DNA of 64,000 nt, taken from contig CAJXQI010000002.1 in the NCBI GenBank assembly GCA_913058395.1, forward strand, positions 1-64,000. The letters are read 5' to 3'. Of the stretch, positions 16,120 to 23,435 are shown in pieces. Position numbers and translations under genes: made by a program. Source of the stretch: an uncultured Colwellia sp. (GTDB taxonomy: Bacteria > Pseudomonadota > Gammaproteobacteria > Enterobacterales > Alteromonadaceae). How positions within the stretch are numbered: the first letter of the stretch is position 1; each line of letters starts with the position of its first letter. The notes below the pieces were generated by a model that saw only the letters and a list, made by a program, of their open reading frames with translations, did no database searches and was not told where the DNA came from.

Positions 16120-17572
16120 GCTGCTTATTATTCGTTTCGTAGTGTTGTTGCCAGAGTTTATTTCTAAAACGATAATCAGGGTCTACTTTTCTCTTTAGTT
16201 CAAAGAATTCATCTGCTTTAGGATAGGCTTTAACAAATTGCTCTGTTGTTGCATGAAGTTGATATGGCAAATAGTAGGCACCATTTTCTTCAATTACAGC
16301 ATCAATTATCTCTCGACTCCAAACTTTTACTGATTGTTGTGCCGCTTCACTGGTTCCTTGACGATAATAGACAACAAATGCAAACACTTCTGTTTTCGCC
16401 CAAGCTAATAATGAGCCGCTATCTGGTAGAGCATGGCGTATCGAAACATTTATAATATTTGCCTGATGCTGTTTAAATATGTTGGCCATTTTGATTGCAA
16501 AGCTATCAAAGTTTTCAACTGGAACAAAGTACTCCCTAAGTGCATAGGTCTGAGTAGTTCGATTAGAAGGTTCAAGCTCGTTAACATCATAACTGGCTTC
16601 ATAGTTCCGCCATTGCACTGCATCAAAGGAATACAGGATCGGCTCTAAGACATGCTGGCGCATCCACTTTCCAAAGTTTGAGTCGGCTACAAACTTTGCC
16701 ACTTTAGGTTGCCAAGTATATTCTTTGTCTTTAGAGATTAACCTCTGCTCTACGGTTAAGGTTTCATAAGTATTTAGCCAACTAACACTACGTATATCGG
16801 TAAAGTTTGGTGGGTAAATATCAGCGTTATGAAAAACGACATTTTGATCATGTCGAATATTTGCTGAAAAGTATTCCTTATAGCTATGAACATTCATCTT
16901 CTCGGTATAACGCTTAACTTTGACATTATCTGCCAAGTTTAAAGTAACTTCTGCAATAACAGCTATACCACCATATCCACCAATTGCACCATAAAACAAA
17001 GTTGAATTCTTTGTTGGCGAAGCACTAACAATTTCACCATTAGCTTTGATTAATTTTATCGACTCAACAGATCTAATTATTGGGCCTTCACCAATATATC
17101 GGCCATGAACATTAACACTAAGAGAACCACCAACAGTAAAATTAGCGTAAGTTTGCATTATTTTTATAGAGAGGTTTTCGGTATCAATAACTTCTTGCAA
17201 GTCTCGCCATGTAATACCACTTTGCACAGTTACTTTCTTGTGAGCCGCATCTAGTGTCAACACTTTATTAAAGGCTCGCATATCCAAATGAATACTATCT
17301 GGGTATGCAATTTGTCCGCCTTGACTAAAGCGCCCTCCACCGATAGAGATTGCCCCTGTACTTGATTGGATAGCACCAACTATATCTTCAATAGACGTTG
17401 GTTGAATAACACGAGTAACCTCGATGGGGTTAAGCTGAGTAATATCATTTACAGTTGTCGGTTGCTCTATTTTTTGGGGGCGATTGTCATCAAAGTCGAT
17501 AAAAATATAGGCGACAAGTAGGCCAAGTAACAGTAAAAAACTAGCAATTATTTTGAAGAACAATTTAATCAA
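16097..17572 (-). CDS. FAD-linked oxidase (FAD_binding_4/PCMH domain) with N-terminal TM anchor
   Basis: GGGRFSQGGQ ... FAD-binding PCMH motifs; N-terminal hydrophobic helix. Confidence 0.7.
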   Translation of the reverse strand: MIKLFFKIIASFLLLLGLLVAYIFIDFDDNRPQKIEQPTTVNDITQLNPIEVTRVIQPTSIEDIVGAIQSSTGAISIGGGRFSQGGQIAYPDSIHLDMRAFNKVLTLDAAHKKVTVQSGITWRDLQEVIDTENLSIKIMQTYANFTVGGSLSVNVHGRYIGEGPIIRSVESIKLIKANGEIVSASPTKNSTLFYGAIGGYGGIAVIAEVTLNLADNVKVKRYTEKMNVHSYKEYFSANIRHDQNVVFHNADIYPPNFTDIRSVSWLNTYETLTVEQRLISKDKEYTWQPKVAKFVADSNFGKWMRQHVLEPILYSFDAVQWRNYEASYDVNELEPSNRTTQTYALREYFVPVENFDSFAIKMANIFKQHQANIINVSIRHALPDSGSLLAWAKTEVFAFVVYYRQGTSEAAQQSVKVWSREIIDAVIEENGAYYLPYQLHATTEQFVKAYPKADEFFELKRKVDPDYRFRNKLWQQHYETNNKQLDGSDDE

Positions 17573-17934
17573 AAAATACTTCCTTTTAATCTAAATTCCA
17601 TGATAAATCATGTCACATTAATTCAGAGTTAGTAATTAATTTCAACTAACTGTTTGCTTTATATTTAAAAACTGATTAATATGCGCTCGTTCAATTATTC
17701 ACCACATCATTTCGAAGGTGAATTCATCAACTAACTGTGAAGGAGATAATATTATGACATTTACATCAACATCCTTTGCAGGTCTTATCCGATAAGAAGC
17801 TTGTAGCTTAGCCACATATTACCTAAGCACTTTAAAGTAGTTTCGCCCGGTTCATTTCGATAGAAATCCAGACCTGCCAATACGTATTACGTTTTAAATC
17901 CTAATTTTCTAATAATGAAAAAGGAATTGGTATT

Positions 17935-19125
17935 ATGGGCAAATCCGTCCAAAAAATTACTGAAAACGTTAGCCTCATTGCATCTACTGATACGTGGATT
18001 GAAGGGCTAGCGATACAGCAACTGATTAAAACATCAGAATTAAGTGGTATGCACAGCGTTGCTGGCATGCCTGATTTGCACCCAGGGAGAGGTTATCCCA
18101 TCGGTGCTGCATTTTTTACAACTAACAAAATTTACCCTGCGCTTGTAGGGAATGATATTGGCTGTGGCATGTCACTTTGGCAAACCTCAGCAAAAGTATC
18201 CAAAGTTAACTTAGATAAACTGGCTAAGAAGTTTGAGCATGTAGAGCAGCCTTTAGATGAAAGCTGGTCTGAAATTATTGAAAACCGAAAGACTGATAAA
18301 GGTATAACAACCGATAGCTATGATCGTGCTCTAGGCACCATTGGTGGCGGTAATCACTTTGCAGAATTTCAGGCCATCGATGAGGTGTATGACCAAATTG
18401 CGTTAGATGAGTTAGGGCTTAATAAAAAGCATTTACAGCTTCTTGTTCACTCAGGCTCTAGAGGTTTAGGTCAATCAATCTTGGTTGATCATATAACTAA
18501 GCATAACCACGATGGCTTAAACCTTGATGATAACGACTTTCAAGATTACATGGCCAAACATGATGAAGCGGTTCGTTGGGCTGAGCTAAATCGTGAACTG
18601 ATTGCCAAACGCTTTTTAGAAGCAATTAGAGCGAATGGTGACTGCGCATTAGACATTAACCACAACTTGGTTTCGTCAAAAAACATTGATGGTTGTGATG
18701 GCTGGCTACACCGCAAAGGCGCAACACCAAGTGATAAAGGTTATGTGGTTATACCTGGTTCACGCGGTGATTATAGCTATTTGGTGAAACCCATTACCTT
18801 GAATGAAAAGCTTAGTAATAGTGAAACTAGCGAAAACTTAAATACGAGCCTGTTTTCTTTAGCGCATGGCGCAGGTAGAAAGTGGAAACGTGGCGAGTGT
18901 CATGGCCGTCTAGGGCATAAATATAATCGTGAAGACTTATATCGCACCGCACTCGGTAGTCGAGTGGTTTGTGGCAATAAAGAGCTTTTGTATGATGAAG
19001 CACCGCAAGCTTATAAGAAATGTGAAACCGTTATCAGCGATATGGTTGATGCGGGGTTAATTGAGGTTATAGCTAAGCTACGTCCGGTATTAACCTTTAA
19101 AACAAATGGAGATTGTTCATCATGA
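17935..19125 (+). CDS. rtcB: RtcB-family RNA ligase, release-factor-H-coupled paralogue (RtcB2)
   Basis: [17 protein letters not shown] and GGGNHF metal-binding motifs; translationally coupled to prfH. Confidence 0.9.
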
Positions 19126-19763
19126 TATTACTACAACTGTCAGCAGGCCAAGGTCCTGTTGAGTGTTGCAAAGCTGTTGGTTTGGCGCTGAAAACAATTG
19201 AAAAACAATGTCGAGAGAAAGGAATAAAGCTCGATATTGTTGAAACCATTGCTTCCAAAGAGCGAGATTGTTTTAAGTCAGCTTTGCTGCAACTTGATTC
19301 AAAAAAGGCTGAGTCTGGAAAGGAAAGTTCAGCTAAGCAATTAGCCGAGTCATGGCAAGGAGCTATGTTATGGGTATGTCAAAGCCAATATAGGCCAAAA
19401 CATAAACGTAAAAACTGGTTCTTCAGTGTCCAAATGTATGAGGTCAATGATACCCAATTGGATAAAGGGGTAACATTTCAAGCATGCCGTGCTTCTGGTG
19501 CAGGCGGACAACATGTAAATACAACGGACTCGGCAGTTCGAGCTACTCATACTGAAACAGGTATTTCAGTACGTGTTGAAAGTGAGCGCAGCCAACATGC
19601 TAATAAGCGGTTATCGAGAGTATTGTTATTCCAGAAGTTGGAAGCAAAAAAACTTGAGCAAATGACACAACAAGAAAAAGCCCGTTGGCAACAGCACTGG
19701 GAAGTTGAACGTGGTAACCCAGTGAAAACATTTAAGGGTGTAAAGTTCACCCTGTCTTCATAG
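19122..19763 (+). CDS. prfH: peptide chain release factor homologue PrfH
   Basis: [17 protein letters not shown]-terminus as in E. coli PrfH; GGQ motif ([16 protein letters not shown]); start overlaps the rtcB2 stop. Confidence 0.9.
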
Positions 19764-19771
19764 GTGAATAT

Positions 19772-20125
19772 ATGTTGATACGAGTATCACCACAGGAGAA
19801 AAAGGTTCGTGATTATGTGAACCAGACTAAGAACTGTTACGGTGAAAATAATAAGAGTTCTAGAAAATCAATTCGATATCGAAAGGTAGCGGTAAATAGA
19901 AGTTACCGTAGAAATGCTCATAATATTTTAAACGTTGGTTACGTAGACATTGAAACCATAGAGGTAAGTTTATCGGCCCAATCAAGAAGTGATTGGCAAA
20001 AGTTTGCTGACGAATCTCTAATAGAGCACATGTCAGACTATAACCGAAACAGCTTAAAAGGTGAGCTTCAAAAAGAAGCCATTAAACGTATAAAGAAAAG
20101 TAATAAAAACACAGATCTAAACTGA
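19772..20125 (+). CDS. hypothetical basic protein (117 aa, Lys/Arg-rich), part of the rtcB2-prfH transcription unit
   Basis: ORF starts 9 nt after the prfH stop; high K/R content suggests nucleic-acid binding. Confidence 0.4.
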   Translation: MLIRVSPQEKKVRDYVNQTKNCYGENNKSSRKSIRYRKVAVNRSYRRNAHNILNVGYVDIETIEVSLSAQSRSDWQKFADESLIEHMSDYNRNSLKGELQKEAIKRIKKSNKNTDLN

Positions 20126-20378
20126 TATTACTTAATTGACAGAAAATGTCTTAAAAAGATCATTGCACTATTATTATTTAATAATTCCGTAGGAGGCAGA
20201 TATGTATTCCATTGAAAAAACATCGACTCAGAAAACTCGCCACTTGGTTGTTGAGTATTAGTTACTTCTAAAAGTTTCAACTCTCGATCAAGGGCTTATT
20301 TAAGCTTTTTATCAGCATCAGAAATTGCTAGGCCAACTTATTACTTGGTTATTAGTGGTTTTTGGTGTGGAGAGATCG

Positions 20379-20768
20379 ATGAATACATCAAAAAATATAT
20401 TGGAATGTTGTGCTTCGTTATGCGAAGGCGATGGCATTTCACCACGTCATGAAAAAAACAAAGAGAATTCTGTTGTTCATGACAATAGACGGCTGTGCCG
20501 TCAGGTTCAAAAACTTGTCCGTTTAGCCATTACTGAACTTGGTTTAGATGGATGGGATATCGTAAGTGTTAAACAAAAACAGGGGAAAACTACCTTAATC
20601 TTAACTATAGCGCCAACAGAGAATGCATCATTTTCAGACTGTGAATCGGCTTTGGAGTGGCTGAGGAGCCATCAAAATGAAATAAGGTTTATTGTTGCAA
20701 ATGGTATAAACAGAAAATCAGTTCCTGCACTGCACTTTGGGCTAGTAGCGGAGGCTGATTATGAATAA
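20379..20768 (+). CDS. RbfA-like (ribosome-binding factor A fold) protein, translationally coupled to RtcB3
   Basis: RRLCRQVQKLVRLAITELG...IVSVK...TTLILTI...RKSVPALHF aligns by eye with E. coli RbfA (RVAQEMQKEIALILQREI...TVSGVEMSRD...AKVYVTF...RLRIVPELTF); 8-nt overlap with rtcB3. Confidence 0.45.
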   Translation: MNTSKNILECCASLCEGDGISPRHEKNKENSVVHDNRRLCRQVQKLVRLAITELGLDGWDIVSVKQKQGKTTLILTIAPTENASFSDCESALEWLRSHQNEIRFIVANGINRKSVPALHFGLVAEADYE

Positions 20769-21882
20769 ATCAAAAGCAAGTTATCGCCATTGGTTAAGTG
20801 AAAAGCTTAGTCCTGAATTAGATCAACAAACTAAACGTTTACTGCATGCAAAAGGTGTGAAGCATGTGAGATTAATGGCTGATGCACATCTAGCCAACGA
20901 TGTTTGTGTTGGTTGTGTTTTGGCAACTGAAAAGCTGATATATCCGGCTGCAATTGGTGGTGATATTGGGTGTGGCATGTTATCGGTGCCACTAGATATT
21001 GATGCAAACTTTATTCAAAGCCAGCAGGCTGAGTTAATTTTTAAAAACTTAACTCATATGGTTCCCATAATGAAGCAATCTCAAGGTATTTCCTTTGAGT
21101 TAGATAAAAAATTATCTAATGAAAGGTTGCAACATATCGCCTTACGAGATGGATGTTATCAATTAGGCACGTTGGGCCGAGGTAATCATTTTCTGGAGTT
21201 GCAACGATGTGTTGAGACAGGACAATTATGGTTAATGATACATACTGGGTCTCGCGGTATGGGGCCTGCAATTCGAGACTATCATTTACATCATGCCTCT
21301 GGAAAATCAGGTGGCCTTAAATACTTGGATATTGATAGTGAACAAGGAAAGGCTTACTACAACGACCTTGGGTGGGCAAGAGAATATGCCAATGCAAACA
21401 GACTGCAAATTTTAGAACGATGTAGAGCACTATTTAGTGACTTATTCTCAGTCTCGGTTGATGAAAACAGGATGATTCATTGTGATCACAACCACCTTGA
21501 TATGGCGACTCTAAATAAACAAGATCTACTAATTCACCGCAAAGGAGCATGCTCGGTAACGAAAGGAGAAACAGCAATAATTCCCGGAAGTATGGGAAGT
21601 GACAGCTTTCATGTTATTGGAAAAGGAAATGCTGATTCGCTGTTTTCTAGTTCTCATGGCGCTGGTCGATGTATGAGCAGACAACTAGCTAGGAAAACTA
21701 TCACAAGTAATAATTTGAGCAAACAACTTTCAGGTATTTACTACCAACAAGAGAAATTACGTTTGCTGACTGAAGAAGCCCCAACCAGTTACAAGAATAT
21801 TGAAAAGGTAATGTCGTTACAGAAAAAGTTAGTCAAAGTGACTAGGCGATTAAGTCCTGTTTTAAGTTACAAAGGCACTTAA
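20761..21882 (+). CDS. rtcB: RtcB-family RNA ligase, third paralogue (RtcB3, 373 aa)
   Basis: GGDIGCGM, GRGNHFLE and HTGSRG motifs. Confidence 0.85.
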   Translation: MNKSKASYRHWLSEKLSPELDQQTKRLLHAKGVKHVRLMADAHLANDVCVGCVLATEKLIYPAAIGGDIGCGMLSVPLDIDANFIQSQQAELIFKNLTHMVPIMKQSQGISFELDKKLSNERLQHIALRDGCYQLGTLGRGNHFLELQRCVETGQLWLMIHTGSRGMGPAIRDYHLHHASGKSGGLKYLDIDSEQGKAYYNDLGWAREYANANRLQILERCRALFSDLFSVSVDENRMIHCDHNHLDMATLNKQDLLIHRKGACSVTKGETAIIPGSMGSDSFHVIGKGNADSLFSSSHGAGRCMSRQLARKTITSNNLSKQLSGIYYQQEKLRLLTEEAPTSYKNIEKVMSLQKKLVKVTRRLSPVLSYKGT

Positions 21883-21889
21883 ACCGTAT

Positions 21890-21925
21890 TGAAGTAGGCT
21901 AGAAATACTAGCCTACTTTTTTATA
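21890..21925. terminator. rho-independent terminator (AGTAGGCTAG..CTAGCCTACT followed by TTTTTT)
   Basis: Perfect 10-bp stem followed by a T-run. Confidence 0.6.
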
Positions 21926-22749
21926 GTAATGACTTTTTTTCTCCGCTTTAATTTTAGGTCGTACTTTTTAAGTTTTTTGCCTGTAGAAGAAATAGTGATG
22001 TACCCTTGAAGCTCACATACGTCATGAGCACTATCATCAGTTGAAGACAAAATATCAGCAGTAGCATATATAGATGCTGTATTTTTAGTGGTGAAGTCTA
22101 ATTTTTTCAGTTCAATTCCGTCACACCAAAGATCCCTAGTTTCAGGGTTAATTGAAAGGTAATTACCTAAAAACCATTCAATATCCGATGGTAAAAATCC
22201 AAGACTAGAATCAGCTAAGCCTTCTTTAATAACGTAAAGCCCTGCGGCTACTTTTCTTTCATGACGTCTTGCATTGTTTTTTAATATGCGTTTGCAAGTA
22301 AATCTACGTTGTAAATTTTTTGAGCAATACATAAAGAATTCTACGTTGGGATCAGGCTCTAAAGTAGCTTCACGAACAATTTCATTCTCTAAAATTACCT
22401 CTAATTTAAGCTCAGAAACTTTGTATTCTTTATAACTATTATATTCACTATCTAATGTTGCTTTTGGTAATAGACCAACAAGACTTTCTTCCGATAACCC
22501 AATAAGCGACTCATCATAAATACAAAAGTCACTGGATGTGATTTTTATACGATCGAGTCTAAATTCATAGAATGAATCGAATTCAAGCTTTAAACCTAGT
22601 TTGTCATAACACCAAACTTCAGGCATGCAATCATCTTCTTTAGCATTCTGGTTTTTTATTTGTTCTGGTATACCAATAATTGATTGAACTTCCGCTCGAT
22701 TCATACCGAAAGTAATATTGCCAATACCGAATAAAGGACTAATTTTCAT
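21913..22749 (-). CDS. hypothetical protein (278 aa) within the RNA-repair cluster
   Basis: ORF only; lysine-rich C-terminus. Confidence 0.45.
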   Translation of the reverse strand: MKISPLFGIGNITFGMNRAEVQSIIGIPEQIKNQNAKEDDCMPEVWCYDKLGLKLEFDSFYEFRLDRIKITSSDFCIYDESLIGLSEESLVGLLPKATLDSEYNSYKEYKVSELKLEVILENEIVREATLEPDPNVEFFMYCSKNLQRRFTCKRILKNNARRHERKVAAGLYVIKEGLADSSLGFLPSDIEWFLGNYLSINPETRDLWCDGIELKKLDFTTKNTASIYATADILSSTDDSAHDVCELQGYITISSTGKKLKKYDLKLKRRKKVITIKK

Positions 22750-22844: not shown

Positions 22845-23435
22845 TTAGGGTTTTCTATTAGCTCGTTTGTATTTAGCTTGGTATTCACGCCTCTGCTTCG
22901 TAACTTCATAAAGCACTATCCCCGTGGTTGTGGCTAAATTTAAGCTCTCAATCATTCCAAACATTGGTATTGATATGCAGGATTCACTTCTTTCAACAAC
23001 AATATCGCTTACACCACGAGATTCATTACCAAACCAAACAGCAAGTTTTGGTTGAGTATAATCAGCCTCGTGAAGCACATAGTTTTCCTTCCCCTTTATA
23101 TGAGGTGACGTCACTAAAGATATAAATCTATTTTTCTCAAGATGTTCTAAGCATTCTTCAGTGCTATTAAAGCGCTTAACAAAAGTCCATTTCGAAGCTG
23201 AAACAGATATTTTTGAAAGTGATTTACGTTCTCTCAATTCTTCCCAATCATCAGGTAGGGATTGCCTAGAATCTACAACGTAAATTTTTTCTACGCCAAG
23301 TGCATTGGCATTTCTAATCACAGAGCCTATGTTTTTTATATCCATAGGATTCTCTAGGACAGCGATTAAATTTTTACATTGGTATTCTTTAATTTCATCC
23401 GCCCGTTGGCGAATGGTACTCTTTGAATTATTCAT
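22845..23435 (-). CDS. SpoU/TrmH-family RNA 2'-O-ribose methyltransferase
   Basis: LIAVLENPMDIKNIGSVIRNANALGVEKIYVV (SPOUT motif 1) and C-terminal knot motifs. Confidence 0.8.
   Translation of the reverse strand: MNNSKSTIRQRADEIKEYQCKNLIAVLENPMDIKNIGSVIRNANALGVEKIYVVDSRQSLPDDWEELRERKSLSKISVSASKWTFVKRFNSTEECLEHLEKNRFISLVTSPHIKGKENYVLHEADYTQPKLAVWFGNESRGVSDIVVERSESCISIPMFGMIESLNLATTTGIVLYEVTKQRREYQAKYKRANRKP

Follow-up and report, generated by a model that had tools for sequence, protein, structure and literature searches.

What does a 13-codon open reading frame (ORF) do when it lies directly upstream of a pair of ribosome-repair genes? The question is raised by a 64,000-nucleotide stretch of DNA from an uncultured Colwellia sp. 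(GenBank assembly GCA_913058395.1, contig CAJXQI010000002.1, positions 1 to 64,000; hereafter the window), in which such a leader ORF precedes rtcB2, encoding an RNA ligase, and prfH, encoding peptide chain release factor H. A first-pass annotation had proposed the ORF as a translation-stalling sensor of the rtcB2-prfH operon, and this idea is now supported because the leader is homologous to PA5471.1 of Pseudomonas aeruginosa, an experimentally established sensor. The analysis shows a conserved ORF with conserved sequence boxes, one RNA helix that covaries, a second whose strands are complementary, and homology of the region to PA5471.1. We think it rather likely, on balance, that the ORF forms the translated part at the heart of a conserved mRNA switch, the homologue of PA5471.1, and that rtcB2-prfH expression follows ribosome dwell at the leader start. 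The parts of the locus on which the argument turns, from the promoter through the Shine-Dalgarno (SD) sequences and the helices P0, P1 and P2 to the two genes, are as follows.

17654-17682, + strand: probable sigma-70 promoter of leader-rtcB2-prfH, with -35 TTGCTT (17654-17659), a 17-nt spacer and -10 TAATAT (17677-17682), from sequence.
17698-17722, + strand: hairpin TTCACC...GGTGAA in the 5' untranslated region (5' UTR), from sequence.
17735-17745, + strand: SD1 box CTGTGAAGGAG, the leader SD and the 5' strand of helix P0, which pairs with 17772-17781.
17754-17795, + strand: leader ORF, 13 codons plus TAA, peptide MTFTSTSFAGLIR, from sequence and conservation.
17772-17784, + strand: box a, TCCTTTGCAGGTC, leader codons 7-11; 17772-17781 pairs with SD1 (P0) and 17776-17784 pairs with box a' (P1).
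17849-17874, + strand: local hairpin GGTT...GACC, predicted from unconstrained minimum-energy folds, which could sequester the 5' half of a' while box a has another partner.
17871-17883, + strand: box a', GACCTGCCAA (17871-17880, 3' strand of P1), overlapping box b, CCAATAC (17877-17883, 5' strand of P2 and anti-SD of rtcB2).
17921-17937, + strand: rtcB2 ribosome-binding region AAGGAATTGGTATT and ATG; GGAATTGG at 17923-17930 is the 3' strand of P2.
17935-19125, + strand: rtcB2, release-factor-H-coupled RtcB RNA ligase, 396 aa, from profile matches.
19122-19763, + strand: prfH, peptide chain release factor H, 213 aa, with GGQ, from profile and structure-chain matches.

The identities of the two genes are well founded. 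RtcB2 passed both of its curated cut-offs (NF007153, 545.6 bits against 407; TIGR03073, 525.2 bits against 271.8), and its best-matching named relative is that of Pseudoalteromonas denitrificans, at 95%. PrfH, whose identity the first-pass annotation had called firm, passed the TIGR03072 equivalog model (256.7 bits, cut-off 166.65), carries SGAGGQ and matched the solved E. coli PrfH chain 7sa4_8 over its full length (residues 1-209, 3.3e-55). The claimed overlap of prfH with the rtcB2 stop is also there, the stop and start sharing ATGA at 19122-19125; prfH begins at the ATG at 19122, which is the start used by homologues, and the TTG at 19113 given in the ORF list is a wrong start. To our knowledge, RtcB2-PrfH is the only known repair system for a cleaved ribosomal decoding centre. 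The E. coli pair carries out peptide release and religation of ribosomes cut between A1493 and G1494 of the 16S rRNA (PMC9304027), and the window resembles the E. coli system in having orthologous proteins in the same order with a stop/start overlap (PMC9304027, PMC9223846, PMC13166195). Those E. coli studies used heterologous promoters, and neither they nor the 2006 paper that defined the operon mention native regulation or a leader.

The leader ORF itself reads ATG ACA TTT ACA TCA ACA TCC TTT GCA GGT CTT ATC CGA TAA, with its TAA at 17793-17795, and is preceded by the SD AAGGAG (17740-17745), 8 nt before the ATG at 17754. From its stop to the rtcB2 ATG at 17935 there is a gap of 139 nt. Every sequence statement of the first-pass annotation about a 13-codon leader behind a strong SD some 140 nt upstream of rtcB2 thus holds. 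Its description of the ORF as strongly initiated stands only in part: for all its strength, the SD is probably masked in part, because it is complementary to the leader's own codons 7-10, with 10 pairs in the window.

To place the leader in a wider context, we sampled 80 PrfH loci, one genome per species, with identities from 87% (Pseudoalteromonas denitrificans) down to 42%; the sample includes Vibrio, Amphritea, Pseudomonas, Escherichia, Klebsiella, Achromobacter, Hydrogenophaga and Gallionellaceae. The order rtcB2 then prfH was found in 78 of the 80, and the 79 loci with a placeable rtcB2 start, the window included, were counted for the leader. When searched for an ATG-initiated ORF, 8-30 codons long, preceded at 8-16 nt by an SD and no more than 420 nt upstream of rtcB2, 78 of these 79 loci yielded an SD-led leader ORF (12-22 codons), across Gamma- and Betaproteobacteria (Alteromonadales, Vibrio, Oceanospirillales, Pseudomonas, Enterobacterales and Burkholderiales). 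Applied to shuffled sequences, this test succeeded in 5%, and of 320 stretches drawn at random from these loci it flagged 12. The leader has 13 codons in 45 loci, 14 in 11, 15 in 7 and 19 in 11 (n=78), the SD spacing of 7-9 nt is kept in 78/79 loci, and the distance from the leader start (AUG1) to the rtcB2 start (AUG2) is 110-301 nt (median 164).

Loci of the E. coli type (L045, L046, L079 and L088) have the leader as in the window, and in E. coli strain 2020CK-00188 (L088, 2459-2775) and E. ruysiae it stands before an intact rtcB2-prfH. RefSeq holds no annotation between yafP and rtcB2 in E. coli, though the leader lies there. The leader of L045 (3625-3865) is MTNPLSMTLCRPFQD; L045 and L079 have about 60-125 nt of extra DNA between box a' and rtcB2, and the insert of L045 looks REP-like. 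At four other loci (L029, L039, L050 and L065) the RtcB2 or PrfH match is in two segments or truncated, which fits frameshifts or pseudogenes. These split matches echo the deletion known from E. coli K-12.

What is conserved within the leader is a stretch of nucleotides. The box C-U-U-U-G-C-A-G-G (CCUUUGCAGGUC, CUUUGCAGG) is almost invariant across 63 loci, and its reading frame takes two forms. In 37 loci, the window included, GCA is a codon and the box gives F-A-G (...S/P-F-A-G...); in 26 it is read one base off, as L-C-R. Within the box, third codon positions vary no more than first and second ones, leader codons 1-6 vary freely, and the stop codon follows 12-21 nt after GCAG. Judging from these sequences, selection keeps the nucleotides of the box and an open, SD-led frame across it, not a peptide, because a near-invariant box is read in different frames from locus to locus. 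The first-pass annotation had looked to conservation of the leader peptide in other genomes; the ORF is indeed kept in 78/79 loci, but the peptide varies.

The nucleotides of the box have a partner. In helix P1, GCAGGUC of the box pairs with a downstream GACCUGC (GACCUGCCAA) 60-130 nt away; in the window, 17776-17784 pairs with 17871-17880, with a bulged C and a UUG:CAA extension. We scored P1 and P0 on an anchor-based alignment of 60 distinct sequences, with controls in which the partner was slid and with 500 shuffles. For P1, 94.3% of cells were paired, compared with 18-48% when the partner was slid, and both sides had changed at four pairs (22 cells), giving variants GCAGGUC/GACCUGC, GCAGGCC/GGCCUGC, GCAGAC/GUCUGC and GCAGUUC/GAACUGC. 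The P1 covariation score (0.160 vs 0.095) was reached by none of the 500 shuffles. GCAG of box a and CUGC of a' are invariant in 60/60 sequences. A global MAFFT alignment of 28 whole leaders with RNAalifold recovered P1 only, because the SD1 region and the middle insert misalign. Hairpins analogous to that at 17849-17874 occur in relatives (GGTC-AATT-GACC and GGCC-TTC-GGCC). A likeness of a' (ACCUGC) to the 3' strand of 16S helix 45 was dropped as a six-base coincidence.

Two further pairings flank P1. In P0, the 5' part of the box (UCCUUUGCAG) is complementary to the leader SD region (CUGUGAAGGA, 17735-17744); 85.7% of cells were paired against 41-58% when slid, and single changes were compatible with G.U pairs. 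Over 78 loci, the energy of the duplex between SD1 and box a averaged -14.2 kcal/mol, against -8.0 kcal/mol for shuffles. In the divergent leaders of Comamonadaceae and Undibacterium, SD1 still pairs with an internal anti-SD, spelled in other letters. P2 would join CCAAU(A/U/C)C, which immediately follows a', to its complement G(A/U/G)AUUGG in the ribosome-binding region of rtcB2. Many loci have a flawless match, among them L004 (CCAATTC/GAATTGG), L012 (CCAATAC/GTATTGG) and Pseudomonas (CCAATCC/GGATTGG), and it extends over AGGAA in L031, L044, L066 and L074. In Amphritea (L018, L026), the rtcB2 SD region AUGCAGGUA pairs with a' (ACCUGC) itself, so that by sequence a' can pair there with either box a or the rtcB2 SD but not with both.

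A leader of this kind has been studied in one organism. The P. aeruginosa gene armZ (PA5471) is RtcB-like and homologous to E. coli ykfJ, a truncated rtcB2 remnant, and the operon of armZ and PA5470 (prfH) is controlled by the 13-aa leader PA5471.1, on which stalling restructures the mRNA and switches the operon on, as later papers relate the work of Morita et al. (2009, J Bacteriol 191:4966; PMC12057347, PMC13041342, PMC3516279). Inducers include ribosome-targeting antibiotics (aminoglycosides, chloramphenicol, spectinomycin) and mutations in suhB, cca, fmt/folD and ribosomal-protein genes (same papers). A protein search with a Metapseudomonas RtcB2 query gave no identifiable P. aeruginosa entry among the 120 matches listed, and our comparison rests on a primer table for strain PA14, which covers about 45 nt of the leader and about 40 nt around the armZ start (PMC13041342). 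The primers give the leader as CCGCAAAGGAGGTTACATCG-ATG ATT CAG TTC TCT ACC CTT TGC AGG C and the armZ start as ...ATGGATTGGATT-ATGGGC and ...TCAATCACATGGATTGGATT ATG GGC AAC (PMC13041342).

The likeness to the window is close at the level of nucleotides. Both have a 13-codon, SD-led ORF before an RtcB-family gene and then prfH, with an SD1 box of GCAAAGGAGG in P. aeruginosa and GTGAAGGAG in the window, an internal box of CCCTTTGCAGGC and TCCTTTGCAGGTC, respectively, and a ligase start region of GGATTGG-N4-ATGGGC compared with GGAATTGG-N4-ATGGGC. A covariance model, R1, built from 18 leaders of the L-C-R class with no Alteromonadales or F-A-G sequence among them, found 17733-17887 as its best match in the 64 kb (33.5 bits, E 4.8e-6). 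In contrast, the peptides differ (MIQFSTLCR... in PA5471.1, MTFTSTSFAGLIR in the window), because the box is read one base out of register; this does not disqualify the comparison, because the family as a whole conserves no peptide. The gap from leader to ligase is about 250 nt in P. aeruginosa and 139 nt in the window, and terminators have been proposed in P. aeruginosa while none were seen in the window. ArmZ has moreover gained a second job as anti-repressor of MexZ, and the window has no sign of an efflux link; PA5471.1 is known only as a regulator of MexXY efflux because ArmZ took on that role.

Since P0 and P1 share GCAG and P1 and P2 share CAA, the helices form a cascade, SD1 : a : a' : SD2 (SD2 being the rtcB2 SD). 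The order of events along it, and an output at translation rather than transcription, are what we infer. At rest, box a (UCCUUUGCAGGUC, codons 7-11) would pair with the leader's own SD region (P0), a' (GACCUGCCAA) would sit in the local hairpin, and box b (CCAAUAC) would mask the rtcB2 SD region GGAAUUGG (P2), leaving rtcB2 and prfH poorly translated. The leading edge of an initiating ribosome lies at roughly +16 (toeprint distance). In 62/63 loci the first base of GCAG lies 21-28 nt past the A of AUG1, just beyond this edge, and a ribosome held at SD1/AUG1 would therefore open P0 while leaving GCAGGUC uncovered. A healthy ribosome would cross box a and terminate within about a second, and P0 would re-form. 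A ribosome unable to decode the first codons, be it drug-bound, tRNA-starved or cut in the 16S decoding centre with the anti-SD fragment retained, would leave box a free long enough for P1 to form with a'. P1 would then take the CAA of box b and release the rtcB2 SD, and intact ribosomes would make RtcB2 and PrfH.

Constrained partition-function folding of the 78 loci, with -15 to +16 around AUG1 held unpaired to mimic the ribosome, is consistent with this cascade. P1 formed, and the unpaired probability of SD2-AUG2 rose in 54/78 loci and fell in 11, the mean going from 0.35 to 0.41 (Wilcoxon 6e-9) and the window from 0.26 to 0.37. A ribosome modelled at the leader stop codon gave no such rise. 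Published P. aeruginosa mutants also fit the cascade (PMC12057347, PMC13041342, PMC3516279). With an amber codon at Q3, armZ is constitutively high, and this change would park the ribosome at codon 2. A clinical deletion of nt 16-22, also constitutive, removes ACCCTTT, exactly the 3' strand of P0, and spares GCAGG. A deletion of nt 1-226 gives high expression. Induction by suhB, cca and fmt defects and by drugs that target the ribosome agrees with the cascade too.

Several observations weigh against this reading. Double changes in P0 amount to 1 cell, and its covariation score was reached by 64 of 500 shuffles and is not significant; P0 rests on complementarity rather than covariation because other constraints act on both of its strands. 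In the window P2 is weak, with 5 pairs, an A.A mismatch and 1 further pair (-10.9 vs -8.1 kcal/mol for shuffles, p ~0.1), and its register differs from locus to locus. SD2 becomes only modestly more accessible in the model, and this gain is gone with the ribosome one codon further on. When the window is folded without constraint, the AUG2 region pairs with 17811-17823, which relatives do not conserve. We therefore hold the cascade to be plausible rather than shown, because the folding effect is small and sensitive to the footprint. Additionally, experiments on leader control have all been made in P. aeruginosa, the published inducers do not include 16S cleavage, and recent P. aeruginosa papers give the output as transcription termination and not SD masking (PMC12057347, PMC13041342, PMC3516279).

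That last point is the substance of the main rival, in which the same sensor has another output and the leader controls premature transcription termination, intrinsic or Rho-dependent, before rtcB2. The P. aeruginosa drawing has segments 3:4 as a terminator whose formation the stalled ribosome prevents, armZ mRNA is higher on induction, and intergenic terminators have been proposed there (PMC12057347, PMC13041342, PMC3516279). In the window, the weakness of P2 and a 139-nt untranslated gap that could load Rho once the leader is translated point the same way. On the other hand, a consensus scan found no intrinsic terminator on the + strand in 17796-17934 and none in the Pseudomonas locus L052, the sole U run (ACGUAUUACGUUUU) follows a stem of only 4 pairs, and the weak terminator-like site in L004 lies inside a variable insert. 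The rtcB2 SD finds its complement in the conserved element beside a', and in Amphritea it pairs with a' directly; 'translational attenuation' is the term used in an earlier paper of the P. aeruginosa field, and mRNA can rise secondarily when translation protects the message. We favour SD masking in the window and regard termination, possibly Rho-dependent, as unlikely, though it is a rival to be taken seriously.

The remaining explanations dispense with ribosome position as the signal. If the conserved RNA were a site for a trans-acting factor (autoregulation by RtcB2/PrfH, a tRNA or an rRNA fragment) and the small ORF incidental, nucleotide conservation well beyond the needs of pairing, as in the invariant GCAG and CUGC, would be accounted for. 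It would leave unexplained why ORF, SD and spacing are kept in 78/79 loci and why the ORF always spans box a and stops shortly after it, even with the other frame; moreover, changes to leader translation alter expression in P. aeruginosa, and no Rfam family matches. We consider this improbable, and we give marginally less credence still to a functional peptide, whether a sequence-specific arrest peptide or a small protein. The peptide MTFTSTSFAGLIR is 100% identical in L001 and L004, two Pseudoalteromonas species, despite divergence of RtcB2 to 86-95% and PrfH to 80-86%, and 'AG' recurs in several divergent classes (FAG, WAG, VAG). Nevertheless, the same nucleotides are read L-C-R in 26 loci, PA5471.1 among those so read, the third codon positions of the box are as constrained as the others, and the Q3K and F4L substitutions in PA5471.1 do not induce; identity within Alteromonadales follows because the nucleotides are constrained. 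Short ORFs are common in intergenic DNA of 36-38% GC, and a chance ORF in such AT-rich sequence would need no function at all, but its presence in 78/79 loci against about 5% expected, together with the covariance-model match (E 5e-6), refutes this idea and leaves it a negligible chance.

With the stall-sensing switch still the preferred reading, its place among known attenuators can be stated. Translational attenuation at ermC, cat and cmlA likewise involves a short leader ORF, a paused ribosome, alternative hairpins and release of a downstream SD. In those leaders, however, a specific nascent peptide and a drug cause a pause inside the leader. The family of the window conserves no peptide, is predicted to respond to a ribosome at the first codons, and uses the leader's own SD as one element of the switch; the window leader does not belong with those of ermC, cat and cmlA. 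Transcription attenuation at trp and his is similar in that the position of a ribosome on a leader ORF selects between RNA pairings, but unlike those leaders the window leader has no runs of regulatory codons and no terminator recognisable by the scan. Control of rtcBA by RtcR and sigma-54 also regulates an RtcB ligase by damage to the translation apparatus; RtcR, however, is a protein activator that senses tRNA fragments, its mechanism is unrelated, and no rtcR or rtcA lies beside either RtcB gene in the window. Rfam searched at gathering and at permissive thresholds gave no family over 17500-18000.

The transcript is probably driven from the site at 17654-17682, which we take from its sequence and its recurrence to act as a sigma-70 promoter; the predicted transcription start is about 17689. 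The -10 TAATAT is followed by a conserved GCGCTCG, and a block TTGCTTTA...TAnnAT-GCGC(C/T)CG lies at equal distance in related loci; in a consensus promoter scan the site scores below threshold. Downstream of the putative transcription start and ahead of SD1 comes the hairpin at 17698-17722. At the same place relatives carry one of other sequence (L003 CACCTAAAATATTTTAGGT, L005 CACCTATTCATAATGAATAGGTG), an apparent covariation, and short leaders lack it; it may serve as an mRNA-stabilising 5' stem.

Downstream of prfH, the window contains a further small gene and a second RtcB module.

19772-20125, + strand: orf117, a basic 117-aa protein starting 8 nt after the prfH stop, from homologues.
20136-20163, + strand: promoter-like site TTGACA-16-GATCAT before the second module, from a promoter scan.
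20202-20261, + strand: second leader ORF MYSIEKTSTQKTRHLVVEY, 19 codons plus TAG, with SD AGGAGG at 20191-20196, from conservation.
20379-20768, + strand: orf129, RbfA-fold protein of 129 aa with a Cys-rich N-terminal tail CCxSxCEGDG, from predicted fold.
20761-21882, + strand: second RtcB paralogue, 373 aa, overlapping the end of orf129; below the RtcB2 cut-offs and neither RtcB2-type nor RtcA-linked.
21891-21919, + strand: intrinsic terminator after the second RtcB, a 12-pair stem plus a T run, from a terminator scan.

The first-pass annotation had named the 117-aa ORF as a third member of the rtcB2-prfH unit. orf117 is a real gene, with 15 close homologues and a profile that finds 849 representative clusters at E <=1e-3 (422 at 1e-10), sharing the motif P-x-E-x-K...G-E-N-x-K-S-S-R-K-x-I-x-x-R-K...N-R...R...W-x-K-x-x-D. 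It belongs to no Pfam or NCBIfam family, with only sub-threshold matches to DUF6870, and its AlphaFold2 model is helical and of low confidence (pLDDT 62, pTM 0.21). The closest named relative, at 80%, is in Thalassotalea nanhaiensis. Membership in the unit holds for that species and two Kangiellaceae, where a homologue follows prfH, but not for the other rtcB2-prfH loci, from which it is absent, and two homologues lie in unrelated neighbourhoods.

The second RtcB module has a leader of its own. The TTGAC of its promoter-like site is conserved in L081, L084, L085, L087 and L022, and the start of the leader peptide, M-Y/C-S/P-I-A/E-x-T-S/L, is conserved in all contexts. Codons 7-10 of this leader (CAUCGACUC) pair with the SD and AUG of orf129 (GAGAGAUCGAUG), with a compensatory change in L084 (CAUCAA/UUGAUG), and its 3' end pairs with a downstream box, GAUCAAGGGC. 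Compared with the rtcB2 leader, it is a different RNA with the same design idea. The terminator at 21891-21919 is the only convincing one on the + strand downstream of the rtcB2 leader; the other + strand hit (20891-20915) lies inside the second rtcB.

orf129 falls below the gathering score of Pfam RbfA (PF02033; 17.2 vs 34.7 bits), and all 15 aligned homologues match this family weakly (best E 2.6e-5). The AlphaFold2 model has a core at pLDDT 85-93 with the type-II KH topology alpha-beta-beta-alpha-alpha-beta, as in RbfA, and its top 17 matches in the PDB are all RbfA (target-normalised TM-score up to 0.82, best E 3e-5). The pair of orf129 and RtcB lies within 4 kb of rtcB2-prfH in 7/9 contexts, whether in tandem, divergently oriented or simply close by. 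RbfA is a 30S-binding protein whose site lies near the 3' minor domain of the 16S rRNA, and for this reason a 30S-directed ligase module is an attractive reading. By this analogy, the RbfA-fold protein and the second RtcB are possibly a second, previously undescribed 30S-directed RNA repair module; in the literature we found no paper linking RbfA with RtcB.

On one metagenomic contig (L091, 7865-8047), the stop of the second leader has been lost and the frame continues into orf129 as a 60-aa ORF, and in L093 (8383-9493) the second RtcB is in fragments and rtcB2-prfH is missing from an otherwise syntenic neighbourhood (DUF4824/DUF2157). The two loci suggest that repair modules decay or are lost in some lineages. 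Just downstream of the repair cluster in the window, and convergent with it, are a 278-aa protein (21913-22749, - strand), a homologue of which is also near prfH in L017, and a SpoU-family RNA 2'-O-methyltransferase (22845-23435, - strand).

Taken in this window alone, the leader is an expected feature of a known operon, and a stall-sensing leader is a known kind of regulator. Its presence before nearly all rtcB2-prfH operons seems to have gone unnoticed, and the generalisation to these operons may be new: the RtcB2-PrfH literature does not address how the pair is induced in cells, and in 15 years of work on MexXY resistance PA5471.1 has been treated as a quirk of an efflux regulator, a 2025 review calling leader control 'unique to MexXY'. 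The window and 78 related loci show that both fields deal with one and the same element: the PA5471.1-type leader is part of the repair operon throughout the Proteobacteria, E. coli among them, though it bears no annotation there. A wider picture can be offered tentatively, as one we find possible but doubtful as a whole: the leader would be an ancestral, near-universal regulator of rtcB2-prfH and a kinetic sensor of ribosomes that start but cannot decode, later co-opted for MexXY in P. aeruginosa, with a second 30S-repair module carrying a leader switch of its own alongside. If this is true, inability to decode the first codons would be exactly the defect left by colicin E3-type cleavage. The structural model of SD1:a, a:a' and b:SD2 would explain the published P. 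aeruginosa mutants and gives a testable hypothesis for the induction of ribosome repair, and it raises the question of whether aminoglycoside-induced MexXY resistance may be a by-product of a ribosome-damage response.

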